Positions 7,065 through 42,300 of a stretch of DNA of 64,000 nt are shown here, one piece after another. Position 1 is the first letter of the stretch. Each line of letters begins with the position of its first letter. The stretch is from Pseudomonadota bacterium (lineage in GTDB: Bacteria; Pseudomonadota; Gammaproteobacteria; JAKAQQ01). The notes under the pieces are model-generated. The model saw only the letters and a program-made list of their open reading frames with translations. It ran no database searches and had not been told where the DNA came from. The translations under genes and the position numbers were made by a program. The DNA lies in the NCBI GenBank assembly GCA_021839245.1, contig JAKCBQ010000001.1:41032-105031 (forward strand), read 5' to 3'.

Positions 7065-7082
7065 ATCAGGCGTCCGGCGGGG

Positions 7083-8309: not shown

Positions 8310-8311
8310 CG

Positions 8312-9847: not shown

Positions 9848-11955
9848 GCGTGAATATGTACCGGGCGGCCCGCGGTCGTAGAGCTGGGTGCGTGCGGCAC
9901 GGCTCCGTGCAGGTGGCGAGACGTCAGGGGCGGCAACACGGGACGATGGCTGTGTGGCATCAACGGAATCGGTCGTTCATGCCGGAGCTCCAAAGCACGA
10001 AGGAACCGGTACGCTCGAGCGGTCTGGATTCCCGTTTGTGTCCGCGTCCGGAGAATGGTGGGTTGCAGGAACACCATGAGGTCCTGTTTTTGCTTGGATG
10101 TACTGGCGTAGCGGAAAAGGTACCCGAGCAACGGGATGTCGCCCAGCAGAGGGACTTTTTCCTTGGTTTCGCTGATCTGATCGCTGATGAGGCCCCCCAA
10201 AACAATGATCTGATGATTGTTGGCGATCACCGTCGTCGAGATTTTGCGGTTGTTGGTGATGAGATCAATCGCACCCTGAACGGACGGAGCCAAGCTCGAG
10301 ACTTTTTGCTTGATGTTGAGGATGACGCTGTTTCCCGCACTGACCCGTGGCTTGATCTGAAGGGTGATTCCCACTTCGTGACGCTGCACGGTCTGGAAAG
10401 GATTGACCACGCCCGCGCCCGCCGTTGACGCGGCCGACGTGTACGCGTACTGCCCCGTCAAAAACGGGACGCGTTGTCCGACCTCGATTTTGGCCTTCTG
10501 GTTGTCGAGCGCAACGACGCTGGGCGTCGACAGAATGTTCGTGTTGGTGTTCGAGGCGAGGGCATTGAGAAGGGCTGCGAAACTCAAGCCGTTGTTCACG
10601 ATGCGACCCACACCGAAGAGCAGGCCGTCGGGGATGTTGATGGACGCGAGAGGGGAGGCGGTGACACCCGTCGACGTTGTTGTGCCTGTGCTCGTCAAGC
10701 CCCCGCTCGTCAGCCCCTCGTAAGCTTCGCCGAGCTGGACCACTCCCGTGCCGGTCCCGCTGAAGTTGGTGAGACTCGCCGCCCCGGCTCCCAGAGCGGC
10801 CCAAGTGATGCCCAGCTGAGCGGCAGCGTTGGAGGTCAGTTCGGCAATGATGGCCTGGACAAGAACTTGTGCCCGTCGAACGTCCAGCTGGTCAATGACG
10901 CTACGGATCGATCGCATCAGTTTTGCCGGTGCGGTGACCACAAGGGCATTGATCGAGTCATCTGCAACGACGACGGGGCGAATCCCGGACGGTGCCGCAA
11001 CGCCTTTGCCGTGAGGCTGCTCATGACTGATGGCCTTGACGTAGGCCTCTAGAATCTTGGCCATGCTTTTAGCTCGCGCGTAGCGCAACCGTATGACCTG
11101 AGTGTTGCCGCCGTTCCGCACCGGGTGATCGAGACTGACGATCAACGCCCGCAATTCAAGGCGCTCCGAGCGCGATCCCGCGATCAGAATGCTGTTGGTC
11201 CTCGGATCGGCGACGAGTCGGATCGGGATGGCCTCGTCTGATTGCTCGCCTCGATAGAGCGTGTTGAGCAGCCGCACGACGTTGCTGGCGGATGCGTAAT
11301 GAAGAGGAACGACGTCGATTCCCATCGTGCTCGGTCTATCAACCCGTCGAATAATGCGCAACATCCGCGCAACGTTTGAAGCTCTGTCCGAAATGATCAG
11401 CATGTTGGAGGGCGTATACGCCGAGAGCTGTGCCGACGGGCTCATGAGAGGGCGGAGAACAGGTACCAGCTGCGCCGCGTTGGTGTAGCGCAACCTCACC
11501 ACCTCTGTGACCGGTTCTTCTCCCGGGATACCAGGAGCAAAGCCGACGGCTCGACCGGGCATTTGGTGGGCCGAAAGCGAGGGAACAATTTTGTAGGTGT
11601 CGTTTCCTACAGGGATGGCGGCATAGCCGTGCACGGCCAGCATGGCGAGAAACGTGGCGTACACCGCGTCCGGCGGGATGGGGTGGGTCGAGATCATCGT
11701 GATATCGCCTTGCACCCTGGGGTCGAGAATAAAGTTCTTGCCCGTGACGCGACTGATCATGCGCACCACGCTGGCGATGGGTGCGTGCTTGAAGTTAAGA
11801 AGCGTTCCTTGCGCGCGACCCGTTTGCGCTGGTGTGGCTTGAGCGGAACATGCGAGAGGGACAAAAAAAGCCGCCGCAACCAGAACCAAAAGACGAATCC
11901 GTCTTGGTCCGATCGGCGACAGCAAGGGGAAGGGCGAGGCGGGCATGAGTGGCAC
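9844..11955 (-). CDS. gspD: type II secretion system secretin GspD
   Basis: 703 aa with signal peptide, N0-N3 domains and a C-terminal secretin domain (VPLLGDIPLLGYLFR...). Confidence 0.9.
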   Translation of the reverse strand: MPLMPASPFPLLSPIGPRRIRLLVLVAAAFFVPLACSAQATPAQTGRAQGTLLNFKHAPIASVVRMISRVTGKNFILDPRVQGDITMISTHPIPPDAVYATFLAMLAVHGYAAIPVGNDTYKIVPSLSAHQMPGRAVGFAPGIPGEEPVTEVVRLRYTNAAQLVPVLRPLMSPSAQLSAYTPSNMLIISDRASNVARMLRIIRRVDRPSTMGIDVVPLHYASASNVVRLLNTLYRGEQSDEAIPIRLVADPRTNSILIAGSRSERLELRALIVSLDHPVRNGGNTQVIRLRYARAKSMAKILEAYVKAISHEQPHGKGVAAPSGIRPVVVADDSINALVVTAPAKLMRSIRSVIDQLDVRRAQVLVQAIIAELTSNAAAQLGITWAALGAGAASLTNFSGTGTGVVQLGEAYEGLTSGGLTSTGTTTSTGVTASPLASINIPDGLLFGVGRIVNNGLSFAALLNALASNTNTNILSTPSVVALDNQKAKIEVGQRVPFLTGQYAYTSAASTAGAGVVNPFQTVQRHEVGITLQIKPRVSAGNSVILNIKQKVSSLAPSVQGAIDLITNNRKISTTVIANNHQIIVLGGLISDQISETKEKVPLLGDIPLLGYLFRYASTSKQKQDLMVFLQPTILRTRTQTGIQTARAYRFLRALELRHERPIPLMPHSHRPVLPPLTSRHLHGAVPHAPSSTTAGRPVHIHA

Positions 11956-11966
11956 GGTCCGTTTTC

Positions 11967-12845
11967 TTAAAGAGCAGAGGTGGAGGGGAGGCTGATCACA
12001 AGATCGGCGCCGTTGCGCTCAATACTGAGCACGATCGGAACATGTTGATTCGCGAAACGTTCGATGAGATTGTAGCCCTGCAATGGATTTGTCAGTTTAA
12101 CTCCATTCACGGCCGTAAGAAGATCTCCGGGGCGAAGGCCCACACGGGCAAAAAGGGAAGAATTGGGCCCGGGGTAGAGACGAATACCTGTAAAGCGGCC
12201 GTTTGTGTAGACAGGGAACGGCCGTAAATAGTTCATGAGATTCGAAGGGTGTGCCAGTAAGCGAGCCGCAAACATGGGAGGCCGTTTCGTACGTCCGGGC
12301 AGGGGCGGGCTCGGCAAGGCCTGGGTGCTGAAACTCCGAGCTCGGGTGAAAGCGATGGACTGCAGGGTCCCCTGGTAGCGCAGAATGACCCTATCACGGT
12401 GAACGCTGACGATTTGAGCGCCACCCGGGATGGTGCCTCCGACACGGTAAACACGTGCAATACCATTCATTTCCAAAATCGCTAGGGATTGACGGTGGTC
12501 TGGAAGAACCGCGACGCCTATCAGTTTCAGCGCCAGGCTTGAAGGGGCTATCCCCCCACCCGTTGAATCGTGGTACGACGGAGGAGGGGTCCCGAAAGGG
12601 TCATCACGATCGAGGAGGGAAGACGCCGATCGCGAAACCACTGCTCCTCTCGTCGGCCCGAGAGCCGGCGATCGCCCCACGGGGAACAGCTCGGAAAGAA
12701 CCGTCCAGAAAAAGGGAACCAGAGCGAACGCCAAAAGTATGACGAAGACGTACGGAAGGCCCGAGGGAGCCTTGCCGACGACACGTCGACCCGCGCGTAT
12801 GGTCCCGCTGACCCACGGTGGTATTTCCTTAGCACGTGAACTCAT
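11967..12845 (-). CDS. gspC: type II secretion system protein GspC (PDZ-containing)
   Basis: N-terminal TM anchor and C-terminal PDZ-like region (LRPGDLLTAVNGVKL). It sits immediately upstream of gspD. Confidence 0.7.
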   Translation of the reverse strand: MSSRAKEIPPWVSGTIRAGRRVVGKAPSGLPYVFVILLAFALVPFFWTVLSELFPVGRSPALGPTRGAVVSRSASSLLDRDDPFGTPPPSYHDSTGGGIAPSSLALKLIGVAVLPDHRQSLAILEMNGIARVYRVGGTIPGGAQIVSVHRDRVILRYQGTLQSIAFTRARSFSTQALPSPPLPGRTKRPPMFAARLLAHPSNLMNYLRPFPVYTNGRFTGIRLYPGPNSSLFARVGLRPGDLLTAVNGVKLTNPLQGYNLIERFANQHVPIVLSIERNGADLVISLPSTSAL

Positions 12846-13052
12846 GGCAACTCGTACGCGTGACGGTTATCCTGTCAACGGCGGCATGGTACGCGCCGAA
12901 CCGGTATCTGCCCCAGGCTCGCGAAGCCAAAAGCCAGCGAAGCAAGCCTTCTCATCATAGCGGACCGAGAGAGCTTTGGGGAGAATCGGGATCGGAATGG
13001 ACCGGTCAGTTTGTTCCCCGTGACCGCCAAGGGGCTGGGGTACAATCGGGCC

Positions 13053-18372: not shown

Positions 18373-20490
18373 CTAACCGCCCCGCACATTTTCTGCGGCA
18401 GCCCAGATGGCAGCCACATGCTCGGCAGCAATCAGCGGCATGTCGGGAATACGAAAATGGCGTCCTCTGAGCTGCGCGAGAGTATGTATAGGCGCCTGGC
18501 CTGCAATATGTAGCCACGCGTTGTCAAGCCTCAACTGACGTGCATTGCGGGCGCGTCTTTGGGACTCATAAGCCTTCCAATTGAGAGGAACGCTGTCGAT
18601 TTTTTCGTCGTGACGCGCCTGTTCGATGGTGCGGACATAGAGTTTGTAGCGTGGATTGGTGTGGGCCCAAGCCAGGAACTCTTTCTTGATCATGGGAAGT
18701 TTGTGATCGAGACCCACGTGCATGACGGTATAAGGTGACGTGGGGATCTTGCTCCACGGTAGCGCGTTCGGTGAGTCTTCTTCACCAAACTCGTTGTCGA
18801 GAAGTGTCGATGGAATGGCGATATCGGGCGTAATCCCACGGTCTTGCGTGCTATCGCCGTTGATGCGATAGAACTTGGCAATAGTGAGCTTGATCTCGCC
18901 CGCATGCAGTCCCGGAAGAATGCGGTGCAAATTCATCAAAGTTTGAACGGTCCCCTTTCCGTAGGTGCGGCTACCCATCACGATGGCACGGTGATAGTCT
19001 TTCAGGGCTGCAGTAAAAATCTCTGTGGCTGACGCCGAGAGACGATTGACAAGAATGACGATCGGTCCAGTGTAGACAGGGCCACGGTTGGGATCCGGCA
19101 TGATTTGCCGTCCGTCGGCGCTCATGATCTGGACCACGGGCCCTTTATCAATGTAGAGCCCTATCGCACGAGCCGCCTCTCGAAGAGAACCTCCACCGTT
19201 GTTGCGAAGTTCGAGCACCAGGGCGTTCATCCCCTCGTGCTCCAACTGAAGCGTAAGCCGCTTCATATCACGGTAGGTGCTTCGGTAATGTTTTTTCCCT
19301 TCCTGCTCACTGCGAAAGTCCAAATAGAACGTTGGAAGTGTGATGACCCCAATTTTGTAGACTTTGCGTCCGAGTGTTACGGGAACCAGGCGTGCGTGAG
19401 CCGCACCGCTTTTCAGTCGAATCGTTCCCCGGACGAGCGTGACAAGCTGTTTGGGCCCACCGACAGGGGCCCCGGAGGGCAGGATGCTCAGGCGGACGAT
19501 GCTGCCTTTGGGGCCACGAATCATTTCGACAATGCTGTCCAAACCGCGCCCTACGACATCTCTCATGGCTCCCTTGGCGCCTTCCCCGATCGCCGTGATG
19601 CGATCACCAGGGTGCAGCTCTCCGTTTTTTGCCGCTGGGCCACCCGGAAGAATACGAACGATCGTGGCATAACCGTCCCGCTCTTCCAACTGTGTTCCGA
19701 TCCCATGGAGCTTTAGTGACATGGCGATCCGGAACTGCTGTTGGGCAATCGGTGAAAAGTATGAGGTGTGCGGATCGATGCCTTTCGCGAAAGCCGTCAT
19801 AAACGTATCGAACACGCGATGTTGCGGGATCTGTCGCAAACGTCTCAGTTGCCTTGTGTAGCGTCGGCGCAAAATCATGCGGGCTTGGGCCACCGTCTTG
19901 CCGTCGGCACGCAACCCAATGATCTCGCTTAGCAATCTCTCTTTCCATATCGACTCGAGGCTTTTCAACGATGGTGCCCACGGTGCATGCTCGCGGGCAA
20001 AAACAAATGATTGATTCCTCTTAAAGTCGTATTGACCTTGACGAAGGTAGGCAATCGCGAAGTGGAGCATTCGAGACACTTGATCTCGGTAGAGGATGTA
20101 AATCCTAAAACCCGGACGGAGATCGCCCCTCTTGAGGTCCTGGCTGAGATGCTGTCCATACTGGTGTTCAAAGGACGTAACTTGTGCGGCCGTAAAGAAA
20201 TAATGATCGGGATCGAGGAGGTGCAAATATTCTTTGAGGATCAGTAGCCCGCGATGACGGCTCATTCGCACGGGCGGGTAATGAAACCGCCGAACTTCGT
20301 CGTAAAAGATGCGCGCAATGAGAACCTGTGCGGGACGTGGTTTCAGGTTCGCTACAGGAACCACTGCCTTGCGGGCATTTGGCGCGACTTTCATCTGTGG
20401 CTTGGCAAGAGCCAGGGCTGTGGCTCCGGCGCCCAAGACAGCAAAAAAGATCGAAACGACAAAAAGGCTTCTGCGCATGAACATGAACAC
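18373..20490 (-). CDS. prc: carboxy-terminal processing (tail-specific) protease, S41 family
   Basis: 705 aa with signal peptide, a PDZ region (GGPAAKNGELHPGDRITAIGEG) and the S41 catalytic region (LVLELRNNGGGSL). Confidence 0.8.
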   Translation of the reverse strand: MFMFMRRSLFVVSIFFAVLGAGATALALAKPQMKVAPNARKAVVPVANLKPRPAQVLIARIFYDEVRRFHYPPVRMSRHRGLLILKEYLHLLDPDHYFFTAAQVTSFEHQYGQHLSQDLKRGDLRPGFRIYILYRDQVSRMLHFAIAYLRQGQYDFKRNQSFVFAREHAPWAPSLKSLESIWKERLLSEIIGLRADGKTVAQARMILRRRYTRQLRRLRQIPQHRVFDTFMTAFAKGIDPHTSYFSPIAQQQFRIAMSLKLHGIGTQLEERDGYATIVRILPGGPAAKNGELHPGDRITAIGEGAKGAMRDVVGRGLDSIVEMIRGPKGSIVRLSILPSGAPVGGPKQLVTLVRGTIRLKSGAAHARLVPVTLGRKVYKIGVITLPTFYLDFRSEQEGKKHYRSTYRDMKRLTLQLEHEGMNALVLELRNNGGGSLREAARAIGLYIDKGPVVQIMSADGRQIMPDPNRGPVYTGPIVILVNRLSASATEIFTAALKDYHRAIVMGSRTYGKGTVQTLMNLHRILPGLHAGEIKLTIAKFYRINGDSTQDRGITPDIAIPSTLLDNEFGEEDSPNALPWSKIPTSPYTVMHVGLDHKLPMIKKEFLAWAHTNPRYKLYVRTIEQARHDEKIDSVPLNWKAYESQRRARNARQLRLDNAWLHIAGQAPIHTLAQLRGRHFRIPDMPLIAAEHVAAIWAAAENVRGG

Positions 20491-20648: not shown

Positions 20649-21671
20649 ATGAGTGAACGAACACGCATACGTGACATACCCGTCGTTCCCGCCGGCCAGA
20701 AATACAGCCGCCCGGAGGGATTCACCGCTATCCGCCACGGGGCGAAAGCGCGCGAAGTGGGCGACCCGCCACAACAGTTGGCACAAAGGAAGCCGGCCTG
20801 GCTCCGGATCTCGATGCCGGGTGGTGCCGATTATGAGCGCGTTCACGCCTTGGTGGAACATCATTCTCTTCATACCGTATGTCAGGAAGCTTTATGCCCC
20901 AACATTGCCGAATGCTGGAGTCGCGGAACGGCGACTTTTATGATTCTCGGCGCTGTTTGCACGCGGGCTTGCCGTTTTTGCGCGGTCGATACCGGCAATC
21001 CCCGGGGTTGGTTGGATCCTGAAGAACCGGCTCATACGGCCCGTGCTGTAGAACTCATGGGTCTGCGCTATGTGGTCCTGACTTCTGTGGATCGGGACGA
21101 TTTGCCCGACGGAGGCGCCAGCCATTTCGCGGCATGCGTTCGAGCCATACGCCTTCGGACACCCGAAGCTCAAGTGGAAGCTCTCACGCCCGATTTCCGG
21201 GGCTCGGAAGAGGCTGTCGCGGTCGTCCTCGATTCTGGTGTGGATGTTTACGCCCAGAATCTCGAGACCGTGGAACGGCTCACCGCTCGGGTTCGTGACC
21301 CGCGCGCTGGCTACGGGCAGACATTGGCTGTCTTGGCCTATGCCAAAACCCACCGTCCGGACATCTACACAAAAACCAGTCTTATGCTGGGCCTGGGGGA
21401 AACGGACGAGGATCTTGAGGCCTGCTTCCGTGATATCCGCTCGGCCGGAGTTGACATCCTGACACTGGGGCAGTATCTCCAACCGACCCGCAACCACCTT
21501 CCTGTTGAAAGGTTTGTCCCTCCTGAAAAGTTCCGGATTTACCGGGATCAAGCTCTCAGACATGGTTTCCACGAAGTCGTGGCCGGTCCGCTCGTACGCT
21601 CAAGCTACAGAGCCGAGCAAGCCTTTGCTCGCAACAATGCGGGGCTGAATGGAGGAGGGGTGAAGGCGTGA
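20649..21671 (+). CDS. lipA: lipoyl synthase
   Basis: Both LipA cysteine motifs: [12 protein letters not shown] and the radical-SAM motif CTRACRFC. Confidence 0.9.
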
Positions 21672-21824
21672 CGAGCGCTTAGGCTTCCCCAGCTTGGGAT
21701 GGATTTGGGGGTATGTGCTCTACACGTTGGCTCTTTTTGCTTCGATGTGGTACATTCTTCGCAGTGTCGGCGGGTTCCGTCGAGAGCGGTCTTCCCCGGC
21801 AGCCACCTATCTGATGAGGTCACC

Positions 21825-23138
21825 ATGAGAAAAGGCTACTGTTTGCGACTGTCTTGGATGGGCGTATGCGCTCTGGCGGTTGCTCTCTTACTCAACCCCA
21901 AGGCCGCGATGGCCAACCGTCTGGGACAGCACTATTCCCATAACAGGTACATGCTGAATCACACGGACTACTTGCACATCAAGCGGGCCGAGCATTTGAT
22001 TAACCGGAAGGAATACGCGCGCGCGCGTCAGGGCCTCGTCTCCTTTCTGTCGTTCGTCCGTTACGACCGTTACCCAAAGGCTTTGGTGCTTGATCTCATT
22101 GCCGAAACCTATCTCGACGAAGGGAACTATCGAGGGGCCGTTCCCTACATGGAACGGGCTCTGGCCGTCCACGGGTTGCCTCGTGCTCAACAAAGGAACC
22201 TGTCCTACAACTTGGTGATCGGGTACGTGAACATGAGGCGTTATCACGCCGCGCTCAATCTCCTCAACCACATCCTCCCGCAGTTCCGTCATCCACCTCT
22301 TTCGCTCCTCTCATTTGCCGCCGTCGTCCATTATCAGGCTGGCGATTATGCGGGAGCGACTCATTATGCGCGAGAAGTCCTGGCCGCTGATCATACCGCC
22401 GGGAAAACACCCGATAAGTCGGCGTACGAAATCATCCTCAACTCGGATGTCAAAGATAAAAATTATGCTCAGGCCGCACACACCCTTCATGCCATGCTCC
22501 GCTATTGGCCGCACAACGGTGCCTATTGGTCCGCATTGGTCAGTACAGAGCTTGAAATGAAGCACGACCGACGTGCGCTGGGAACGCTCAACCACGCTTA
22601 TCAGTTGGGTTTGATTCGTGATCAAGCGGATCTGAACAACCTGGTTTCTTTGGAGCTCTCCTACGGCAACCCGGTTACTGCGGCCACCCTCCTTAAGTCT
22701 CTCATTGCCTCGGGACGTATTCCCAATTCACAGCGCAACAAAGAGCTTCTCGTCGCCGCCTGGGCAAGAGCGCACAATACGGTAGAACTCGCTCGGGCTG
22801 TGGCGGCGGCCGCCCCGGGTGCGAAATCGGGCAGCATGTACATGTACGAAGCCAGCATGTGTTATCAGAAGAGCGACTGGGTCTGTGTGACGCGCTCTGT
22901 TCGCAAGGCTCTCGCCAAGGGGGCTATGAGCAGAACCCAAACCGGGAATGCATACGTTCTTCTTGGTACGGCCTACGTGAAGAGAAAACTGTATGGACCT
23001 GCTCTTCCTGTGTTCAAAAAGGTTCTTGCCGGTTACGGAGCGGGTGTGCACAAGCAGGCCGCTCAGTGGATCAAGTACCTGAACTATCGCTTGAGCATTG
23101 AGGAGGCCCGTCACGGACCCGGTGTCCTCAAACCGTAA
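21825..23138 (+). CDS. secreted TPR-like repeat protein
   Basis: Signal peptide MRKGYCLRLSWMGVCALAVALLLNPKAAMA followed by helical-repeat sequence. The ORF track starts 42 codons upstream, before the signal peptide. Confidence 0.5.
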   Translation: MRKGYCLRLSWMGVCALAVALLLNPKAAMANRLGQHYSHNRYMLNHTDYLHIKRAEHLINRKEYARARQGLVSFLSFVRYDRYPKALVLDLIAETYLDEGNYRGAVPYMERALAVHGLPRAQQRNLSYNLVIGYVNMRRYHAALNLLNHILPQFRHPPLSLLSFAAVVHYQAGDYAGATHYAREVLAADHTAGKTPDKSAYEIILNSDVKDKNYAQAAHTLHAMLRYWPHNGAYWSALVSTELEMKHDRRALGTLNHAYQLGLIRDQADLNNLVSLELSYGNPVTAATLLKSLIASGRIPNSQRNKELLVAAWARAHNTVELARAVAAAAPGAKSGSMYMYEASMCYQKSDWVCVTRSVRKALAKGAMSRTQTGNAYVLLGTAYVKRKLYGPALPVFKKVLAGYGAGVHKQAAQWIKYLNYRLSIEEARHGPGVLKP

Positions 23139-23423
23139 TGGTCGGTCAGACTCTGTCCATTTAACCAGACCATCCAGAGGGGCCAACTGACGACTCGGTT
23201 GGCCCCTTTATTGATTCACGGCTTTGAGACTACAAGTGAAGGGACCCGAGCTTCTGGGGGCATTGAGATATGTTCCTATTTGTTTGATGTGTTTTTTCAT
23301 TGAGATCAGAAAAATCAATAAGATGACAACCATCACGCTCTGGGAGCAGACGTGACAGGAAACTTATTTGAAATAGACGTATAGTGCATCTCAGCTCTCT
23401 AAATACTGGTGGGAGATTTTCGG

Positions 23424-23969
23424 GTGGGCGCAGAACGGAACTTCTTCCCCTTTGGATATGGATCCATACTCGTCTTGGCAGCTGTGCTTGTTGGGTGCAC
23501 CCCCTATTACCAGGCTGGCCAAGGGGGCTACTCGGCATATTCCACGCAGGACTTGGGGGGAACATATCAGTACGGAGGTTTTGAGGACACGTTTGGTCCT
23601 CCATCAGGTGGTTGGATCTATGGAAGCTTTGGGTACCCGAATCTTTATCCACTGTCCCCCAACTGGTATGTGTCTCCTTACCCCTATAGCCCCTATCCTG
23701 TGTACGGGCCGCCGGTGTTCGTGGGATCACCGCCCACCCCGCCACCTCCGCCAAGCGGACCTTTACCACCACCTCCGCCGGGCGGTAGCCCGCCGCCTCC
23801 CCCGCCTGGGGCTGGACCTCCTCCTATGGGCCCGCCTAATCCCGCCCCCGTGGGCCCACCGCCTCCTCCCGCCGGACCGCCCGGTGGAAGATACTCGCCA
23901 TTAATGCCGACGATTCCCAACCCAGCACGTCCCCATCCCTGCCCCAGAGGCAAGCTCGTATGCCCCTAA
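23424..23969 (+). CDS. Tyr/Gly/Pro-rich lipoprotein, family 1 (member a)
   Basis: GTG start chosen by nucleotide and protein homology to the 25549 N-terminus. Lipobox LVGC. A YQYGGFEDTFGPPSGGWIYGSFGYP...SPYPYSPYPVYGPP module is followed by a degenerate Pro-rich tail. It is a paralog of 27125 and the 28142 C-terminus. Confidence 0.55.
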   Translation: MGAERNFFPFGYGSILVLAAVLVGCTPYYQAGQGGYSAYSTQDLGGTYQYGGFEDTFGPPSGGWIYGSFGYPNLYPLSPNWYVSPYPYSPYPVYGPPVFVGSPPTPPPPPSGPLPPPPPGGSPPPPPPGAGPPPMGPPNPAPVGPPPPPAGPPGGRYSPLMPTIPNPARPHPCPRGKLVCP

Positions 23970-24119
23970 TTCTGGCCCGTCAACTTTTTTGAAGATTGTG
24001 CGTTTTAGTGATATGCAAAAATCACTGACGCCGGAGATGCTGATTGATCGAACAGAAGATGGTGAACGACTTGTGTAAAGCTGTCGCGCTTTGCGCTTCT
24101 TGCTCTTGAAGGAGGATTT

Positions 24120-25076
24120 ATGAAACACAAAACCCGATGGTACGCCTGTGCTCTTTTGGTTGTTTCGCTCGCATTGATTCCTGCACCCAAAGCACGAGCG
24201 GGTTTTTTTATCGGTCTCAGCGGAGCTAACTTCGCCTTTTCCATCAACAGTGGTCTTGGCGTCTATCAGGCCGCGGAGTATCCTGGGTTTCTGTACTGCA
24301 CGAACGTCTTCTGTTACCGGTGGGCGGGTTACGGATGGTATTACGCACCCTGGGGCGGAGGGCCCTGGATGTTCGCCCCAGCCGATTTTTTGCTGCCCCC
24401 CCCTCTTGTCTATGGCCCGCCGCCTCCTCTGGTCGTCGTCTACAGGCCGTATTTCGTATGGTGGCGTGGGTACATCGGTCCCTGGTACGCCATTCACCAC
24501 CCCGTTTGGTGGCGTCAGAATCGCGTTTACATCACGCACTACACCGTATGGCGTACCCACGTGATTCGCACGTATGGGCCGCATGTCTCTTCCGCGGTCT
24601 GGACGCGACCCCGGGCCTTGGGCATGCGCCCTCGATTTTTGCCCAAGAGCCACCCAGATATTCGCTGGGCGCAGCACCAGTGGGCAAGAAACCGGCCGGA
24701 CCTTTACGGCCGAGCCCGTGTTGAAGCCTTTTATCGCCAGCATCCCCAGTTTGGTCGCGCGCGTCCGATGCGACAGCCGATCAGGCGCTTCGGCGGGCCT
24801 GCCGGGTTCCGTGGTCCTCGAGGCAGAGGTTTTCCGCAAGGTGGGATGGGCAACAGGATGCATCCTGTCCCCAACAGGGGTTACGGCTACCGGCAGGGGA
24901 GAGAAGGGCAGCCATTTCGTCCTGTCGGACCCGGCGTTCGTGGGCCGGGCAGGGTCTATGGAAGACCCATGGCTCCGGCGATGCGTCCACAGGGGTATCG
25001 CCCTGCTCCGCTGAGGCGTTTACCGCAGCGTGGTGGGGGCCCCCGTCGTTGTCGCAATCCCAGACACTGTTTCTGA
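24120..25076 (+). CDS. secreted Trp/Tyr/Arg-rich protein, family 2 (member a)
   Basis: Sec signal peptide. SNFAFSINSGLGVYQ...YRPYFVWWRGYIGPWYAIHHPVWW core. Very basic C-terminus ending CRNPRHCF. About 90% identical to 25549. Confidence 0.55.
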   Translation: MKHKTRWYACALLVVSLALIPAPKARAGFFIGLSGANFAFSINSGLGVYQAAEYPGFLYCTNVFCYRWAGYGWYYAPWGGGPWMFAPADFLLPPPLVYGPPPPLVVVYRPYFVWWRGYIGPWYAIHHPVWWRQNRVYITHYTVWRTHVIRTYGPHVSSAVWTRPRALGMRPRFLPKSHPDIRWAQHQWARNRPDLYGRARVEAFYRQHPQFGRARPMRQPIRRFGGPAGFRGPRGRGFPQGGMGNRMHPVPNRGYGYRQGREGQPFRPVGPGVRGPGRVYGRPMAPAMRPQGYRPAPLRRLPQRGGGPRRCRNPRHCF

Positions 25077-25102
25077 GGGCCTGAAAGTTCGCAAAATTCG
25101 TT

Positions 25103-25136
25103 CGTGGGGTGTCATGTTTGTGCATGACGCCCCACG
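25103..25136 (+). terminator. stem-loop (CGTGGGGTGTCATG/CATGACGCCCCACG) 3' of gene 24120, no U-tract
   Basis: Inverted repeat read from the sequence. The equivalent stem-loop with compensatory changes lies at 26558..26589 after the paralog. Confidence 0.35.
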
Positions 25137-25548
25137 AAGTGGTAGGAGACTACGACGTTTGTGACAATGGGTCGCACTTGTGCACTGGCGCAAAGGATGC
25201 TCAAAGACCTGTGGCCCCTTCAGTGAAGACGATTGATGCGTGAAAAACAAGATAACTGTCTTGGTAAACGCTGAGGAGGTCATTCCTTAAAAGCCCAAGC
25301 GTCTTCGCCTTTCCAACCTCTTTCCGATGAGGCTAATTCTAATTAGCGCGTCAAAGTGAACACAACCAGAATCCCGGAGGTTATCGAGTGATCCATATCC
25401 GGCGAGTTTTGCTTATTTAAATAAATAATATCAACATGATAATGATCATCAAGAGATTATGCATGAAGAATAAGTGGACGATTTGAAGTCGATGTATAGT
25501 AATGGTTAAATTCGCGGCTCAATCAACACCGAGGGAGGAGATTTTCAG

Positions 25549-26532
25549 ATGCGCGCAACGGGGAAGTTATTTTCTTGCAGATATTGGTCGATCCTTGTCA
25601 TGGCAGCGTTGCTTGTTGCCTGCACCCCTTATTATTACCAGGTTGGGCAAGGTGGTTACTACGCCGGCGGATCTAACTTCGCCTTTTCCATCAACAGTGG
25701 TCTTGGCGTGTATCAGACGGCGGGCTATCCTGGGTTTCTGTACTGCACGAACGCCTTCTGTTACCGGTGGGCGGGCTACGGATGGTATTACGCACCTTGG
25801 AGCGGAGGGCCCTGGATGATCGCTCCCGCCAATTATTTATTGCCTCCCCCTCTTGTCTATGGCCCGCCGCCGCCTTTGGTCGTCGTCTACAGGCCGTATT
25901 TCGTATGGTGGCGTGGGTACATCGGCCCTTGGTACGCCATTCACCACCCCGTTTGGTGGCGGCGGAATCGCGTTTACATCACGCACTATACCGTATGGCG
26001 TACCCATGTGATTCGGACGTATGGGCCGCATGTCTCTTCCGCGGTCTGGACACGACCTAGGGCTTTGGGCATGCGTCCTCGATTTTTGCCCAAGAACCAC
26101 CCAGATATTCGTTGGGCGCAGCACCAGTGGGCAAGAAGCCGGCCGAATCTTTACGGCCGAGGCCCTGTTGGAGCTTTTGATCGCCAGCATCCCCAGTTTG
26201 GTCACGCGCGCCCGATGCGCGCGATGCGGCAGCCGATCAGGCACTTCGGCGGACCTGCAGGGTTCCGTGGCCCTCGAGGCAGGGGTTTCCCGCAAGGTGG
26301 GATGGGCAACAGGATGCATCCTGTCCCCAACAGGGGTTACGGCTATCGGCAGGGGAGAGCAGGGCAGCCATTTCGACCTGTTGGACCCGGCGTTCGTGGG
26401 CCGGGCAGGGTCTATGGAAGACCTGCAGCTCCGGCGATGCGTCCACAGGGGTATCGCCCTGCTCCGCTGAGGCGTTTACCGCAGCGCGGTGGAGGCCCCC
26501 GTCGTTGTCGCAATCCCAGACACTGTTTCTGA
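25549..26532 (+). CDS. Trp/Tyr/Arg-rich lipoprotein, family 2 (member b); chimeric family-1-like N-terminus
   Basis: Lipobox LLVAC plus TPYYYQVGQGGYY are shared with 23424. From SNFAFSINSG onward it is near-identical to 24120, and the substitutions are mostly synonymous or conservative. Shine-Dalgarno GGGAGGAG precedes the ATG. Confidence 0.6.
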   Translation: MRATGKLFSCRYWSILVMAALLVACTPYYYQVGQGGYYAGGSNFAFSINSGLGVYQTAGYPGFLYCTNAFCYRWAGYGWYYAPWSGGPWMIAPANYLLPPPLVYGPPPPLVVVYRPYFVWWRGYIGPWYAIHHPVWWRRNRVYITHYTVWRTHVIRTYGPHVSSAVWTRPRALGMRPRFLPKNHPDIRWAQHQWARSRPNLYGRGPVGAFDRQHPQFGHARPMRAMRQPIRHFGGPAGFRGPRGRGFPQGGMGNRMHPVPNRGYGYRQGRAGQPFRPVGPGVRGPGRVYGRPAAPAMRPQGYRPAPLRRLPQRGGGPRRCRNPRHCF

Positions 26533-26557
26533 GAGCTTGAAAGTTCACAAGTTAATA

Positions 26558-26589
26558 CGTGGTGTGTCGTACGGACATGACGCACCACG
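26558..26589 (+). terminator. stem-loop 3' of gene 25549 (paralogous to 25103..25136)
   Basis: CGTGGTGTGTCGT/ACGGACATGACGCACCACG with G-U compatible changes relative to the first copy. Confidence 0.35.
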
Positions 26590-26605
26590 TGGGATCAGCC
26601 CAGGA

Positions 26606-27010
<405 letters not shown>

Positions 27011-27124
27011 CGCGGCGAAAGCCAAGGTGTTTTTATACAAGGCCTCAAGTTTGGCATTGTCAATGACATGCTGGCTCTCAACATTCATGTTTTTTATGAA
27101 AATTATCCTCATTAGACGTTCTGC

Positions 27125-27958
27125 ATGAAAAGTGATAGATTGAGTGTAAGTGAGACTTGTTCTCTGTCAGCAACTAGGCACAAAGTGAACAGGCGCAGAT
27201 GGGCTCATTTTTTTCGATGCGCGGCTCCGTTAGCCATGGCCATCACTCTAGGTCTCTCTGGTTGTGCAATCACACCCTACTCTGGGTCCCAGGCCTACGG
27301 TTGGTACTCCACATATGGAGGGGGAGGCGGAACCTACGACTTCAATGGCTTCCAGGAAACCTTCGGATGGCCAGGGGCATGGGAAGGGGGAAGCTATAAC
27401 TACCCTGGGTACTATGAATACAACTACCCGTACGTTCCTCCTTACTCCGCATATCCTTACCCTGTCTTTACCCAGTCTCCCCCGCCGCCTCCCGGAGGAG
27501 GGCCCCCGCCGCCTCCCGGAGGAGGGCCTCCGCCGCCTCCCGGAGGAGGGCCTCCGCCGCCTCCCGGAGGAGGGCCTCCGCCACCTCCCGGAGGAGGGCC
27601 TCCGCCACCTCCCGGAGGGGGGTTCCCGCCACCTCCTGGAGGGGGGTTCCCGCCACCTCCTGGAGGAGGGCCCCCGCCACCTCCTGGAGGGGGGTTCCCG
27701 CCATCTCCTGGAGGAGGGCCCCCGCCACCTCCTGGAGGGGGGTTCCCGCCACCTCCTGGAGGAGGGCCCCCGCCACCTCCTGGAGGAGGGCCCCCGCCAC
27801 CTCCTGGAGGGGGGTTCCCGCCATCTCCTGGAGGAGGGCCCCCGCCACTTGGTCCTCTTGGGGGAGGGCCATTTGGGCCGCCGCCCGGTGGCCCGCCTGG
27901 AGGAGGACCTCCGTCCCCTCCCGGCCCACCTGGTGGTGGACCACCGTTCAATCCCTAA
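27125..27958 (+). CDS. Tyr/Gly/Pro-rich lipoprotein, family 1 (member b) with (PPPPPGGG)n tail
   Basis: Lipobox LSGC. YGWYSTYGGGGGTYDFNGFQETFGWPGAWEGGSYNYPGYYEYNYPY module homologous to 23424 and 28142. It is followed by about 15 tandem PPPPPGGG units. The start codon is uncertain. Confidence 0.5.
   Translation: MKSDRLSVSETCSLSATRHKVNRRRWAHFFRCAAPLAMAITLGLSGCAITPYSGSQAYGWYSTYGGGGGTYDFNGFQETFGWPGAWEGGSYNYPGYYEYNYPYVPPYSAYPYPVFTQSPPPPPGGGPPPPPGGGPPPPPGGGPPPPPGGGPPPPPGGGPPPPPGGGFPPPPGGGFPPPPGGGPPPPPGGGFPPSPGGGPPPPPGGGFPPPPGGGPPPPPGGGPPPPPGGGFPPSPGGGPPPLGPLGGGPFGPPPGGPPGGGPPSPPGPPGGGPPFNP
27478..27846 (+). repeat. 24-nt tandem coding repeat (cctcccggaggagggcctccgccg)n encoding (PPPPPGGG)n
   Basis: Direct reading of the sequence: about 15 near-perfect units with G-to-F and P-to-S variants. 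It generates spurious long ORFs on the other five frames. Confidence 0.9.
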
Positions 27959-28141
27959 CCATCGCCGCTTCCCCAGCGCGTCCCGAGCCCTCTTCCATTA
28001 CCGAGGATGCCGCGGTCGTTTGATCCCTCATCTCTACCCTGGCGGGCGGGTCTCGTATCCCTAAGTTCGATGATCGTCAGACCAGTAAGTTCACAAGTCA
28101 TAGCTTGAGGGTTCAATTATTCATTTCTGGAGCACATCGCC

Positions 28142-28654
28142 ATGAAACATCGCAAACTATCGGCAGGCGTGCTCGCAGCCACTTGCCTCCTTCTGGTTTT
28201 GCCCCTAGCTAAAGCGGGATCTTCCGGCGCTGAGCACAGGCCCGACCATAAGCCCGGAGCCTCCCGTCCGGTATTTCGGCCGAGGCTTGTCTATCGTCTT
28301 CCCTTTCAAGATACGATGCATCTTTATCAGGGTCAGCATAGTCTCCAGATCAAACGTCGCAGTTGGCATGGATGTCAAAACCCGCGCCTCTGTGTCGAAT
28401 TGCCTCATCAGTGGTGCCTGTTTGGATGCGCAATCAAACTCGGCAGTTTTCCCCGCGTTAATCCCCAGGATTATGGTTGGTACACTGCGTACGGAGAAGG
28501 AGGAGGGCTAGTCAACAACATCTACGACATTGGTGGGTTCCAAGAAAACTTTGGCTGGCCGCCAAAGGCATGGGTGGGCGGAAATTACTACGATACCGGG
28601 TACTATGAATTCGGCTATCCGTATCTCTCTTATCCTGCCTACCCTAAACGCTAG
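28142..28654 (+). CDS. secreted Tyr/Gly-rich protein, family 1 (member c)
   Basis: Sec signal peptide (PLAKA/GSS). C-terminal YGWYTAYGEGGG...GGFQENFGWPPKAWVGGNYYDTGYYEFGYPYLSYPAYP module homologous to 27125 and 23424. Confidence 0.5.
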   Translation: MKHRKLSAGVLAATCLLLVLPLAKAGSSGAEHRPDHKPGASRPVFRPRLVYRLPFQDTMHLYQGQHSLQIKRRSWHGCQNPRLCVELPHQWCLFGCAIKLGSFPRVNPQDYGWYTAYGEGGGLVNNIYDIGGFQENFGWPPKAWVGGNYYDTGYYEFGYPYLSYPAYPKR

Positions 28655-28736
28655 TCCCTCTAGATCTCTGTAGCCGGTCTTTAATCAAACGATTGTCGTG
28701 ATCGTTTACGTGTCAGCGTCTCTTGTGCCCGTAACC

Positions 28737-28808
28737 AGATGACGTTTCCGACAACGTCTCACCAGACTAGAGATACCCATGATTCACATGTGAGAAAAAA
28801 TCGATTGC
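28737..28808. repeat. ~75-bp repeat element, copy B
   Basis: Homologous to 26606..26680. Located between the convergent genes 28142 (+) and 28839 (-). Confidence 0.6.
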
Positions 28809-28838
28809 CTCCCACTGGCATCATCGTTTGCCATATCG

Positions 28839-29432
28839 TCAAAGCTGTGACCAGCACTGATTCCAAAACTCGATCGCTGGGCTGTTATGTTCCCATCCCA
28901 GGCGGGAAATACTAGCGGCATCGAGACGCAATTGATCGCCAAACCGCAGATTCATGTCAAGCCAAATACAGGCTAGAGACCGCAAGATATGCCCGTGGGC
29001 GAAGCAAAGTATCTGCTCACAGCCGGCAGACGACCAACCTTTCAGCAGCCTCCGGCAGCGCCGACGGATGTCATGACGACTTTCACCTTCCGGCGCGCCG
29101 CAGCGAAAAATGCTCCAGTTGGGATTTTCTTGATGGATCTCGGCTGTGGTTTTGCCCTCATAGCGGCCGTAATACCATTCGTGAAGATCCGGTTCCACCC
29201 GTGGATCAAAACCGGCGATCATCGCCGTGTGACGGGCTCGCAGCAAAGGGCTTGTGTAGACACTGTCGAAACGGTATTTGCCGGCTTCGAAGTAGCGTCG
29301 TAATGCCTCGGCTTGATTTCGACCGTTGTCATTCAGGTCAAGGTCGGTGACCGAGGTATGCCTTCCCGTGGCCGCCCATTCCGTCATTCCGTGTCGGACC
29401 ATTGTGATGGAACGAATCGAAGAGTGGTTCAT
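28839..29432 (-). CDS. histidine phosphatase family protein (phosphoglycerate-mutase-like)
   Basis: N-terminal catalytic RHG motif (ITMVRHGMTEW) and a downstream conserved His (CFAHGH). Confidence 0.65.
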   Translation of the reverse strand: MNHSSIRSITMVRHGMTEWAATGRHTSVTDLDLNDNGRNQAEALRRYFEAGKYRFDSVYTSPLLRARHTAMIAGFDPRVEPDLHEWYYGRYEGKTTAEIHQENPNWSIFRCGAPEGESRHDIRRRCRRLLKGWSSAGCEQILCFAHGHILRSLACIWLDMNLRFGDQLRLDAASISRLGWEHNSPAIEFWNQCWSQL

Positions 29433-37060: not shown

Positions 37061-37288
37061 ACAGACACTAAACTCCCCTGTTGCTTATGTGCAAACAGAG
37101 GGGGTAGGGGTCATTAGCCGTGATCGGCACTTAATATTGGCGAACCCCATCGCCTATGTGAATAGTCTACTACATCGTTAGGAGTTTGGGGGTTCTATAA
37201 CTTTACATAATATACATTCTGGGTTATTCGGCCTAGGGTGGCTAGAGCCTTTCTGACGTGTTTCCCGCTTCCGTCTCTGCGACCACCA

Positions 37289-39330: not shown

Positions 39331-42300
39331 TCAATGAAGAACCATAGGCGATACATGAGGAATCTGTAAGTGATAGTTCCGATACGGTTCGCGATGGTAG
39401 CGAGGAATGGGATGTTCACGAAGCATGCGCAATGCGAGATGGACGGCTTCGACAAGCTGGGGGTCGATTCCTTTGCGCACAAGCGCGGGATTGTTCCAGA
39501 TTTTGACCGTGGGCGCAATCCCATGATCCTCGACGGGGAAATGCCCGTTCAGGCCCTCAATTGCTTCACGAGGTGCGGTGACTCGCCCTCCGTCCATGAG
39601 CGGTGGGTACCCCCAAATTCCAACCAGCCCACCCCATGTTCTCGTGCCCACCAAGGGCCCAAGGTGCGCCATTTTGAAAAACCACGGTAGCGCATCGCCT
39701 CCGGATCCCGAGTAGCGGTTGATGATCATGACCTTGGGGCCCTGCATGACCTGTGACGGTTCAACGTACGTTCGTCCGTAGCGGTTGACATGCAGAGCCA
39801 TCGGCTTGCGCTGCAGATACTGAATGACGTAGTCGGCGAGATCGCCCCCCGTGTTGAAACGTTCGTCGATGATCACTCCTTCCTTGTTGACCTGCGAGAA
39901 AAAATACCGATTGAAATAACGCAGTCCTGCACTATAAGTGTTGGGAAGATATACGTAACCCAACCGCCCATGGCTCATGCGATTCACCACACGAATATTG
40001 TGATCGACCCACGCCGCGAGATTGAGTGGGGCTTCATTGCTGATCGCGTGCACCACCAGATTGCGTGCTCCAGACCCGTTGGCGTTTTTGGCAACCGTCA
40101 GGAGAATATCTTTGTCGGCTAAACCTTCAAACGCCGCGTATATGCTTTTGCTCGCTCGAATCTGATGTCCGTTCACCGCGAGCACGTAATCGCCTCTGTG
40201 GATGTTCAAGCCGGGTTGAGCCAGTGGGGCGTAGAGAGACGGGTTCCACTCCCCTCCCCTCAAAATTCTGGTGATTTGATAACGTCCATGCTTGATTCGG
40301 TAACGAGCACCGAGAAGCCCGACGCCGACGTGGAGTGTATGCGGCTCCATCCCTCCACGGACAAACATATGTCCCACAGCGAGATAACTGAGCATCTCTC
40401 TGAAGAGAATGTTGAGTCCGTGGCGGCTCCCGACCCCAGGGAGATAGCGTTCAAAAATCTTGGCGACGCGGTCGATTGGCGTTCCGTCGAAGATAGGACT
40501 GTAGAAGTATGTATGCTCCATACGCCAAACGTCTTGATACATTTCCGACCAAGCCAATTGAGGTACCACTCGAACAATCATGTTCTCTGTGGGGATTGGG
40601 CGCCGAGTGAATTTGCCGATCGTCGAGTCGACATACCATTTGTGACCGACGGCGACAAGCATTCTCTTTCCGTCTCTTGCAATATGGAAAACGCGTGCCT
40701 GCGTAACCAGCGCGGTCTCTTTGCGTTTGGTGAGATTGTAACGAAGCACGGAAAAAGTGGGGAGACTGCTCAGCGGAGGGATCGGGGCGGCGCGAAGCAG
40801 GATCAGGCGGTCTCCCGGCAAGGATTCCAGTCCAACGTAATTAGCCGCTGGTACCGGGAGCGCCACCAGCCGGTCCCTTAGGTGGTCCAGGTCGATCCGT
40901 GGCTCTACGATGTTTTGTGGTTTCTTTGTGTCAACTGCGTTTTTGCTTCCCAGCCCAGGAAATTGCACGCGTGCTGGTATGGGCGATGGGGTTCTTCGCC
41001 CCAGAGCCAGAGCGTATACGCTGCGGCGGATTCTGTGGTCGAGACCGGTCATGTCCAGCGTTGTGGCAGAGAGACCCAAGTCAGTGCTTTCGGTGAAATA
41101 CAAATAACGCCCGTGAGGTGAGAAAACAGGATCACGACAATCGCTTGAACCGTGGGTGACCATGTGGTTTGTGTGTCGCCTCACAGAAAACAAAACAATC
41201 GCGTGGCGAAAGTTCGGCTCAAGCCTTGTGTAGACAATCCACCGGCCGTTAGGTGACCAACGAGCATCGAAATGCTGTGCGGTCGAATCGTAGATGTCGG
41301 TGGCAATGAGGCGTGGGTGCGAATTGCGTTTTTTGAGATTGATTTCGTAGAGATGCAAACGCACGTCCGCGTACAAGAGTCCGTTGCCGCTTGGCGACCA
41401 GCGGAGATGCCTGTAAAAATCGTATCGCGAACCCAGCGAGAAGGCCCGAACCGGACCAATGCCGTCGGCTTTACGTACATACAGGGCGTAAGCACCAGAT
41501 TGATCTGAGAAATACGCGATTCTCGACCCATGTGGTGACCAGGCCGGATCGCGAACCATCTCTCCCGCATCATGAGTCAGTGTCACCATTCCCTTGTGCC
41601 GGACGGACAGTTCGAGCAGTTTGCCGTAGGCCGTGAAGGCCACCCAATCACCGCGTGGGTCGATGGCTGAATTCTGGAGATAAGGTTGTGCCTTGACAAA
41701 GCGTGGACGGAGATCGGGAATGTTGCCCTCGAGCCGGATGGGAATTGTCCGCACACGTTGCGTGTGTAGATTGTAGAGCTCAATCCGGCCAAACCTGTCG
41801 AGGACGATAGCACCGGGTCCGCTTGCTGCGGAAAGCATGTCGAAATGGTGACGCGAAACCGGTAGTCTTTCCCGGAGGCGATGATTACGTACGTTGTAGG
41901 AGTACAGGGTAAATTGCCCGGCGGCATTGGAAAGGAAAAAGATATGGTTTCCTATCCAAAGGGGATCACGGTCTTCGGCAGGTCCGTGGGGTATACGCAC
42001 AAGAATGCGTGAAGTCCCCAGTTGTGCAATGCGGATCGTGGTCTTTTGACCGCCTTCGTAATGCTGCCAGAAGCGCTCCCACTGAAGTTCGGGAACGTAT
42101 GCGATTTCGTGATTGTGAGGAGAAAATGATCCTGCCTGGCCGGTGGGCAAAGGGAGCGGACGTGCGAATCCGCCTCGCCGAGAAACCAGAAAGAGGCGGG
42201 GAATGTAGTGTGGCCCATAACGATCGGAGCGAAACAAAACATCCCGACTGTTCGTTGTCCAACCTACGGCAATGTTGGGCGACGGATAATAGGTCAACCG

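Follow-up and report, generated by a model that had tools for sequence, protein, structure and literature searches.

Two previously undescribed families of exported aromatic proteins, encoded as a gene pair in a five-gene bacterial cluster

In the bacterial envelope, TonB and similar periplasm-spanning proteins carry segments of polyproline-II helix, which rises by ~0.31 nm per residue, and the lipoproteins Lpp, LpoA/LpoB and NlpI reach into the periplasm with elongated or disordered chains. Proline-rich helices are bound by SH3, WW, GYF and EVH1 domains and by profilin via Trp/Tyr grooves; to our knowledge, every well studied polyproline reader uses grooves of this kind. Features that recall both occur together in a cluster of five genes, termed A–E, in a 64-kb stretch of DNA from a Pseudomonadota bacterium (contig JAKCBQ010000001.1; the whole stretch is referred to here as the window). 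The genes belong to two families, a proline-rich lipoprotein (family 1) and an aromatic, basic protein (family 2). Both are without known relatives and previously undescribed, and the family-2 core lies outside the characterised sequences and folds, the fold having been compared with those in the PDB. A family-1 gene followed by a family-2 gene constitutes a conserved two-gene module, present in three unrelated neighbourhoods. The five genes are listed below, with the basis of each assignment in parentheses.

23424..23969, + strand: gene A, intact family-1 lipoprotein, 181 aa, GTG start (ORF list, family alignment)
24120..25076, + strand: gene B, intact family-2 protein, 318 aa (ORF list; family profile match, E = 5e-87)
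25549..26532, + strand: gene C, chimera, 327 aa, A-type signal on B-type body (BLASTP, self-BLASTN, DNA comparison)
27125..27958, + strand: gene D, family-1 lipoprotein (lipobox LSGC), 15 PPPPPGGG units (ORF list, BLASTP, alignment)
28142..28654, + strand: gene E, chimera, 170 aa, family-2-type Sec signal on family-1 precursor (BLASTP, alignment)

A first-pass annotation had proposed five paralogous genes on one strand. All five are present as plus-strand open reading frames (ORFs), and their similarity in BLASTP is far beyond chance: B and C share 89.9% identity over 296 aa (E = 0.0), A and D 45% (E = 1e-41), D and E 42% (E = 1.7e-23) and the N-termini of A and C 35% (E = 2.8e-15). Its division of the genes into two families with recombining parts can be extended, since gene E is the reciprocal of gene C (BLASTP, alignment and DNA comparison). 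A profile scan in all six frames found no further copies in the 64 kb.

Relatives, architecture and coding potential

The same annotation had recognised no domain in these proteins, and searches of Pfam, NCBIfam, PHROGs, PADLOC and the PDB bear this out. The five proteins gave no Pfam or NCBIfam match at E ≤ 1 and no PHROGs or PADLOC match at E ≤ 0.01, with no sign of phage or anti-phage membership. When 29 family-2 members were scanned singly against Pfam the best E-value was 0.034; in sequence profile searches of the PDB the best values were 0.12 (family 2) and 0.31 (family 1), and a fold search, which covered the PDB only, returned no match to the family-2 core model.

The families are sparsely represented in sequence collections. 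A single-sequence query with family 2 identified eight clusters amongst 5.8 billion sequences, a profile query of the same collection 26, and there are 29 clusters at 50% identity amongst 1.84 billion representatives (E ≤ 0.001); the source name is 'hypothetical protein' in every case. A pattern scan of 185,579 species genomes located one locus, in the metagenome-assembled genome (MAG) 'Proteobacteria bacterium TL1-5.bin26', using patterns derived from the close clade which distant members would escape. With the family-1 module, one relative came from a word-index search and none from scanning JGI metagenome contigs; other family-1 genes surfaced only by inspecting the DNA upstream of family-2 genes.

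Judged on traceable sources, the families have so far been found mainly in very acidic waters. TL1-5 was sampled from sediment of acid mine drainage, in a study whose sediments were at pH 2.5–2.8 (PMC7779479), AUZY01 is a mine drainage metagenome (PMC5891951) and SRR7903764 derives from a study of two Kunashir thermal pools, at pH 2.0 and pH 6.0 (PMC8468003). Distant family-2 members come from 'Deltaproteobacteria' MAGs and from Candidatus Acididesulfobacter guangdongensis. The families span at least two distant lineages, one of them a proteobacterium and the other Candidatus Acidulodesulfobacterales.

A common layout, consisting of an anchor or signal, an aromatic domain, a long low-complexity spacer and a C-terminal Cys loop, applies to both families. 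The parts shared by family-1 members are a lipobox; a Tyr/Gly/Trp module of ~65 aa that adjoins the lipid anchor, with consensus Y.(W)YS....GG.Y.(Y/F)(G/N)GFQETFGWPSG.W...SY.YP..YP....YPY.PYP; a fast-evolving Pro/Gly-rich tail of ~65–165 aa; and the ending PCPxG(K/R)(F/L)xCP, which contains the terminal motif CPxGxxxCP. The repeat unit of the tail is lineage-specific (PPPPPGGG, PPPPGQ, PPPPPPGG or GPxPGPI), and a Pro/Gly spacer is retained despite this turnover of sequence. Gene A, which starts with GTG rather than ATG and for which public contigs carry the same 181-aa gene call, displays these parts as the lipobox LVGC, the Tyr/Gly/Trp module, a poly-Pro tail in degenerate form and, at the C-terminus, the loop CPRGKLVCP. 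The first-pass annotation had assigned the module followed by a proline tail to A, D and E; the module is indeed present in all three (23424, 27125 and 28142), but the tail is lacking in E.

Family 2 is built on an extremely aromatic and basic core of ~170 aa, with invariant Trp, Tyr and Pro positions and the consensus FAFSxxxGVNAYYxP..Y.Y..NGYYYRW.NGGW.YA...GPW.P....LPP.L.YGPPPPVV.YRPYF.WWR...GPWY..HHP.WW.RH..Y..HY..WR.H, and an Arg/Gly/Pro tail then leads to CRNPRHCF. Gene B has all of these parts behind a Sec signal. The core probably folds: an AlphaFold2 model from a 25-sequence alignment, with a predicted local distance difference test score (pLDDT) of 76.5 and a predicted template-modelling score of 0.75, comprises a sheet of five strands, the invariant strap LPPxLxYGPPPP and then helices rich in Trp, Arg and His. 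Full-length C, modelled with nine sequences, has a pLDDT of 37.7. Nearly all of the ~50 family-2 relatives are strongly basic (pI 9–12). A regular-expression search detects a lipobox in about 21 of 52, and the rest have Sec-type signals. The length of the basic tail varies amongst the relatives between 0 and 224 residues, and the conserved unit is therefore the core. The family-2 proteins of the paired clade have in addition gained Cys pairs, YCTNVFCY within the core and CRNPRHCF at the end. One relative, P0037 (350 aa), contains three tandem copies of the N-terminal β sub-domain of ~50 residues and nothing more of the core, so that this sub-domain is an independent evolutionary unit.

The mature proteins are of unusual composition. 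Mature A contains 34% Pro, 16% Gly and 10% Tyr (pI 7.9), and mature D 41% Pro and 31% Gly with neither Arg nor Lys (pI 4.05). Mature B has 14% each of Arg, Pro and Gly, 7% Tyr and 4.5% Trp (pI 11.5); C is similar (pI 11.4), and mature E has 13% Gly, 10% Pro and 10% Tyr (pI 9.05). The signal peptides that had been proposed for all five, with lipoboxes in three, are evident on inspection. The lipobox is LVGC in A, LVAC in C and LSGC in D, in keeping with the pattern of bacterial lipoproteins, in which a positively charged n-region and a hydrophobic h-region lead to [LVI][ASTVI][GAS]C within the first ~15–50 residues; B and E have Sec-type cleavage sites, between KARA and G and between AKA and G, respectively. 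The lipoboxes of family-1 orthologues read LVAC, LAAC or LTGC. All five products are predicted to be exported via Sec or Lol.

That the substitutions between B and C are mainly synonymous, and that the plus-strand frames are coding, was confirmed by Nei–Gojobori dN/dS ratios computed in all six frames. For B and C, 39 of the 61 substitutions are synonymous and 22 non-synonymous (dN/dS 0.16). The ratio is 0.098 between B and its orthologue in the sister MAG L009 (0.07 in the core and 0.13 in the Arg-rich tail), 0.195 between C and its orthologue in the sister MAG L010 (P0001) and 0.25, with no in-frame stops, between A and its L009 orthologue. Only plus-strand frame 0 combines a low ratio with zero stops; the antisense frame that shares the wobble positions also has a low ratio, yet 10–21 stops, and the ratios of the other frames exceed 1. 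A 320-aa antisense ORF at 23901–24863 was accordingly rejected as an artefact, the antisense frames having either dN/dS > 1 or 21 stops. Genes A, B and C are real genes under constraint, which in B extends to the low-complexity tail.

The gene pair and the history of the cluster

Three genes that flank the cluster serve to place it in related genomes.

20649–21671: lipoyl synthase (LipA), upstream of the cluster
21699..23138, + strand: exported TPR-repeat protein (Pfam TPR matches)
28839–29432, − strand: histidine phosphatase, downstream of the cluster

Wherever the contig permits, a close family-2 gene has a family-1 lipoprotein gene directly before it on the same strand. The pair is placed after the TPR protein in the window and in the related contigs L009, L011 and L012, beside an intact, divergently transcribed katG in L021 and after a Tricorn-like S41 protease in L022. 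The TPR protein occupies the same position in L001–L012 and is not beside the pair in L021 or L022; against the PrsT model it scored 24 bits (cut-off 312). The protease in L022 (966–4241, 1091 aa) is directly upstream of the pair and on the same strand, and the window itself encodes a Tricorn-like S41 protease of 1092 aa at 39331–42609 (− strand). In L011 an IS256-type (Transposase_mut) gene at 11699–12891 (− strand) occupies the site right after the pair that in the window belongs to the histidine phosphatase. No conserved partner was found for the distant family-2 genes in five contexts, and since these genes are solitary, family 1 is a clade-specific partner.

A small lipoprotein gene paired with a gene for a strongly basic exported protein raises the idea of a secreted cationic antimicrobial protein, family 2, with family 1 as its immunity or helper lipoprotein. 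The Arg/Pro/Gly tail with its terminal Cys-x5-Cys loop, the expansion of the paralogues and the fast evolution of the tails would all suit such a role. Conservation, however, resides in the folded core and not in the tail, which some members lack; many members carry a lipobox and, being lipid-anchored, would be unable to diffuse; and no partner, transporter or immunity gene accompanies the distant members. PADLOC and Pfam revealed no toxin or bacteriocin match, and the selection is strongly purifying (dN/dS about 0.1) rather than diversifying. We consider an antimicrobial role very improbable.

The history of the cluster draws on the following features.

24220..25136, + strand: duplication copy 1, which runs ~60 bp beyond the gene B stop (self-BLASTN)
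25667..26589, + strand: duplication copy 2 (self-BLASTN)
26606..26677, + strand: 72-bp direct repeat, left copy, 86% identity to right copy (self-BLASTN)
26611..28814, no strand: lineage-specific 2.2-kb segment with katG fragment, D and E (junction in L009/L010, L021 collinearity)
26682..26960, − strand: katG 5' fragment, about residues 18–99, with stops and a frameshift (translation)
27479..27848, + strand: 24-bp tandem repeat encoding PPPPPGGG, 15.4 copies, 90% matches
27959..28069, + strand: decayed 3' end of gene D, reads PSPLPLPRMPRSFDPSSLPWRAGLVS in frame past the stop
28737..28808, + strand: 72-bp direct repeat, right copy, 86% identity to left copy (self-BLASTN)

Sequence comparison shows that the five genes derive from two family-1/family-2 pairs. 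The events were a tandem duplication, two reciprocal signal-peptide swaps (giving C and E), a 2.2-kb insertion, expansion of a repeat and truncation of D. A–B is the ancestral pair. Its position after LipA and the TPR protein is kept in the sister MAG L009 (about 89% nucleotide identity) and in the more distant relative L011 (about 75%), and the pair is therefore vertically inherited.

Gene C had been described as a mosaic, and this description stands. Its body is part of a 926-bp duplication of B at 91% identity, whilst its 5' end, from the ribosome-binding site to about codon 37, shares 70–80% DNA identity with the 5' end of gene A. The product consists of an A-type lipoprotein signal (LVAC, then TPYYYQVGQGGYY) and a body of the gene-B type. 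L010 carries the same type of chimera (P0001), so C is older than this species. In L009, gene B is followed by 142 bp left over from the 3' end of a second family-2 gene (11082–11223), and L009 must therefore once have had a C-type copy, since lost.

The segment 26611–28814 is not present in L009 or L010, where the junction reads straight through as GGAAAATG joined to CCTGGCATC; it is flanked by the 72-bp direct repeats, neither copy of which occurs in these sister MAGs. The segment is collinear with the katG, family-1, family-2 order of L021: positions 26682–27567, from the 5' part of katG across the intergenic region into the 5' part of family 1, match L021 1215–2090 at 62.5%, and 27953–28069 match L021 2121–2234, the family-1 3' end. 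On these grounds the katG fragment, D and E make up a lineage-specific 2.2-kb insertion. The first-pass annotation had thought the whole cluster accessory-looking, which applies to this segment only, A–B being in the same place in relatives. It had also placed a decayed katG at the edge of the cluster. The remnant exists, with stops and a frameshift near 26775–26782, but is located inside the cluster, between C and D; the fragment ORF gave no Pfam match and falls short of a full-length two-domain KatG of ~730 aa, and an intact KatG occupies the same relative position in L021. Decay of katG in place was considered and rejected, given the sister-MAG junction and the L021 collinearity, in favour of arrival of the stub within the inserted segment.

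Gene D probably starts at the GTG at 27185, which gives a lipoprotein signal of 27 aa. Its stop precedes the terminal loop, a decayed form of which can be read in frame with the cysteines of CPxGRFxCP lost. The window has 15 PPPPPGGG units and the ~99.8% identical contigs L001, L002 and L004 have 11, 8 and 9, always in frame; the differences could reflect either a real variable-number repeat or the collapse of a short-read assembly. In near-identical public contigs an overlapping 'LPEEGLRR' frame is called over D (27264–28064, + strand, in the window; 11797–12420 in L001; 5474–6130 in L004). An exact-sequence look-up of gene D found no match because public assemblies hold fewer repeats and call another frame, and such wrong-frame calls in repeat-rich sequence probably hide family-1 relatives, so that the family is under-represented in protein databases.

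Gene E is a chimera in the opposite sense to C, with the signal from family 2 and the body from family 1. Its Sec signal is 65% identical to P0007 and 58% identical to the family-2 signal of L021. After ~25 further residues comes nearly the whole of a family-1 precursor, with residues 52–168 matching D residues 5–111 (BLASTP), and the family-1 lipobox survives inside E as WCLFGCAIK in a stretch that is no longer hydrophobic. Residues 74–86 of E (28360–28400) include CQNPRLC, which resembles the family-2 CRNPRHC loop (21/39 nt); the same stretch also aligns with the D signal peptide. The locus provides a clean natural case of gene birth by signal-peptide swapping.

The signs of damage invite the opposite view of the cluster, as low-complexity ORFs that are mostly non-functional and adrift since their duplication. 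The terminal loop of D is lost to a stop, E is chimeric and holds an internal signal peptide that has degraded, the katG stub separates C from D, and the orthologues of D and E are confined to one population, so that selection on these two is not measurable. Against this, A, B and C are intact, with dN/dS of 0.10–0.25 versus their orthologues; the family-2 core is conserved in distant lineages including Candidatus Acididesulfobacter; and D and E retain open frames, export signals and aromatic modules. Loss of function is extremely improbable for the cluster as a whole, with a higher chance for D and E alone.

The AT-richness noted for the intergenic DNA is real, the GC content falling to 35–47% compared with 49–65% across the 1-kb bins of the window. 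A promoter scan gave seven promoter-like sites, mostly on the wrong strand, where 2.6 were expected, and the number of terminators in a scan of the locus is at chance level. A terminator-like hairpin at 24073–24096 (+ strand), between A and B and 24 nt 5' of the gene B start, could terminate the A transcript or be a regulatory structure. A group-4 hydrogenase-like cluster is encoded downstream of the five genes on the opposite strand, and a fluoride riboswitch (crcB motif) occurs at 37098–37163 (− strand; 48.4 bits versus a gathering score of 34).

Proposed role of the pair

We tentatively favour a function as a cell-envelope tether or scaffold pair, a reading that we regard as possible rather than probable. 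It draws on the Trp/Tyr grooves of polyproline readers, set beside the invariant Trp, Tyr and Pro of the family-2 core, on the layout common to both families and on the conservation of the pair. Both proteins would be structural parts of the cell envelope. The family-1 lipoprotein would be anchored in the outer membrane, as suggested by the residue after the lipid-bearing Cys, which is Thr, Ala or Val and never Asp, and its tail would form a stiff polyproline-II spacer that extends tens of nanometres into the periplasm; from the rise per residue the spacer of A might measure about 20 nm and that of D more. The aromatic core or the tail of family 2 may bind this spacer, or anionic envelope polymers, through aromatic–proline and cation–π contacts. 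Such a tether or scaffold might help the envelope in acidic habitats, and a signal-peptide swap could toggle a domain between lipid-anchored and soluble forms.

Several points weigh against this assignment. The placement of family 1 at the outer membrane as opposed to the surface depends solely on the E. coli +2 rule, and the spacer of D (~160 residues) would exceed the typical width of the periplasm. Some family-2 members are entirely without a tail. Distant family-2 genes stand alone in unrelated housekeeping contexts with no family-1 partner, so that family 1 is not needed for the core to work. Genes D and E have undergone rearrangement and may be in decay. The apparent restriction to acidic habitats may in part mirror which studies dominate the databases.

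A location past the outer membrane would suit the idea of the first-pass annotation, namely surface or extracellular matrix, adhesin or mineral-binding proteins that attach cells to minerals or to one another, with the Tyr residues perhaps oxidatively cross-linked. The composition, rich in Tyr, Gly, Trp, Pro and Arg, and the acidic, mineral-rich habitat would agree with this. The repeat number of D varies in frame (8–15 units) amongst near-identical contigs, and in-frame variation of repeat number is common in surface proteins; the variation may instead be assembly collapse. A type II secretion secretin (GspD) is encoded at 9844–11955 (− strand), ~11 kb upstream of the cluster; large ORFs on the same strand lie beside it, the type II secretion region probably extends over 4737–12845 and it could serve for export, should the proteins reach the surface. 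The proteins themselves have no surface-export signal, autotransporter or sortase-like motif, and the Pfam and NCBIfam scans revealed no adhesin domain. Although katG neighbours the pair in L021, that KatG has no signal peptide and is thus cytoplasmic, which makes enzymatic cross-linking by this neighbour unlikely. Family-2 relatives, moreover, occur singly amongst housekeeping genes. A matrix or adhesin role is, in our judgement, unlikely.

Whatever the role, both families would be new entries of the domain of unknown function (DUF) type. Their acidic sources in distant lineages make them candidates for adaptation of the envelope to low pH, for which few molecular leads exist. The novelty lies at the level of protein family and fold; biological importance is unproven.

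Comparison with known systems

Several known classes could be set aside. The 24-bp period of the D repeat corresponds to 8 aa, with no match to the Gly-X-Y model of collagen-like proteins (PF01391). There is no Pfam or NCBIfam match to curli or Fap components, and neither csgG/E/F nor fapF was seen beside the pair in the window, L009, L011, L021 or L022. The C-termini are Cys loops (CRNPRHCF, CPRGKLVCP) and not PEP-CTERM/exosortase signals.

The runs of four to six Pro together with Tyr-rich stretches in an exported, structural-looking protein are reminiscent of plant extensins. In contrast to extensins, the present proteins are bacterial, the unit is GGGPPPPP instead of Ser-Pro4, the repeats are without YxY or VYK, no prolyl hydroxylase is known and there is no Pfam match. 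The family-2 tail, Arg/Pro-rich with a terminal Cys-x5-Cys loop, is similarly like Bac7, PR-39, thanatin and the Rana box; unlike these, it belongs to a protein of 300 aa that is conserved in its core, and the relatives are often tail-less or lipid-anchored.

A Gly/Tyr-rich uncharged partner (D, pI 4.05) and an Arg/Gly/aromatic partner (pI 11.5) also resemble the 'stickers' of FUS-type and mussel foot proteins. Tyr/Arg sticker chemistry of this kind drives cation–π coacervation. The likeness is one of composition only, and family 2 differs in having a predicted folded core. By extension, the pair could form a two-component extracytoplasmic material: a gel, condensate or layer that is stable in acid and lies either in the periplasm or at the cell surface of an extreme acidophile. 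The uncharged Gly/Tyr-polyproline lipoprotein and the Arg/Trp/Tyr-rich partner would then join by cation–π and aromatic–proline contacts, with thickness set by the number of octapeptide repeats and anchoring by signal-peptide swapping. We hold such a material to be rather improbable.

Amongst envelope lipoproteins, family 1 is like Lpp, LpoA/LpoB and NlpI in that it is small, the +2 residue after its lipobox Cys is not Asp, and an elongated or disordered region reaches into the periplasm. It differs in having no sequence match to these, no coiled coil and no C-terminal Lys for attachment to peptidoglycan; the Braun lipoprotein model (PF04728) gave no match, and family 1 ends in CP (FNP in D). 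A Prc/Tsp tail-specific protease (PDZ and S41) at 18373–20490 (− strand), just upstream of the TPR protein and the pair, recalls with that TPR protein the Prc–NlpI protease–adaptor pair of E. coli. It is pure conjecture that the PDZ domain might read the conserved C-terminal motifs of both families.

The nearest parallels in layout are TonB and other periplasm-spanning polyproline-II proteins. As in these, family 1 has a membrane-anchored N-terminus, a long and rigid Pro-rich spacer and a small C-terminal element for possible docking. In contrast to TonB, the anchor is a lipid and not a transmembrane helix, with a cleavable lipoprotein signal at the N-terminus; the spacer is of Pro/Gly and not Glu-Pro/Lys-Pro; the aromatic module is at the anchored end; and there is no TonB_C (PF03544) match at E ≤ 1. 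The SH3, WW, GYF and EVH1 domains and profilin offer no more than an analogy: invariant Trp, Tyr and Pro dominate the family-2 core, whose gene adjoins that of a protein with long runs of Pro, FPPPP included.

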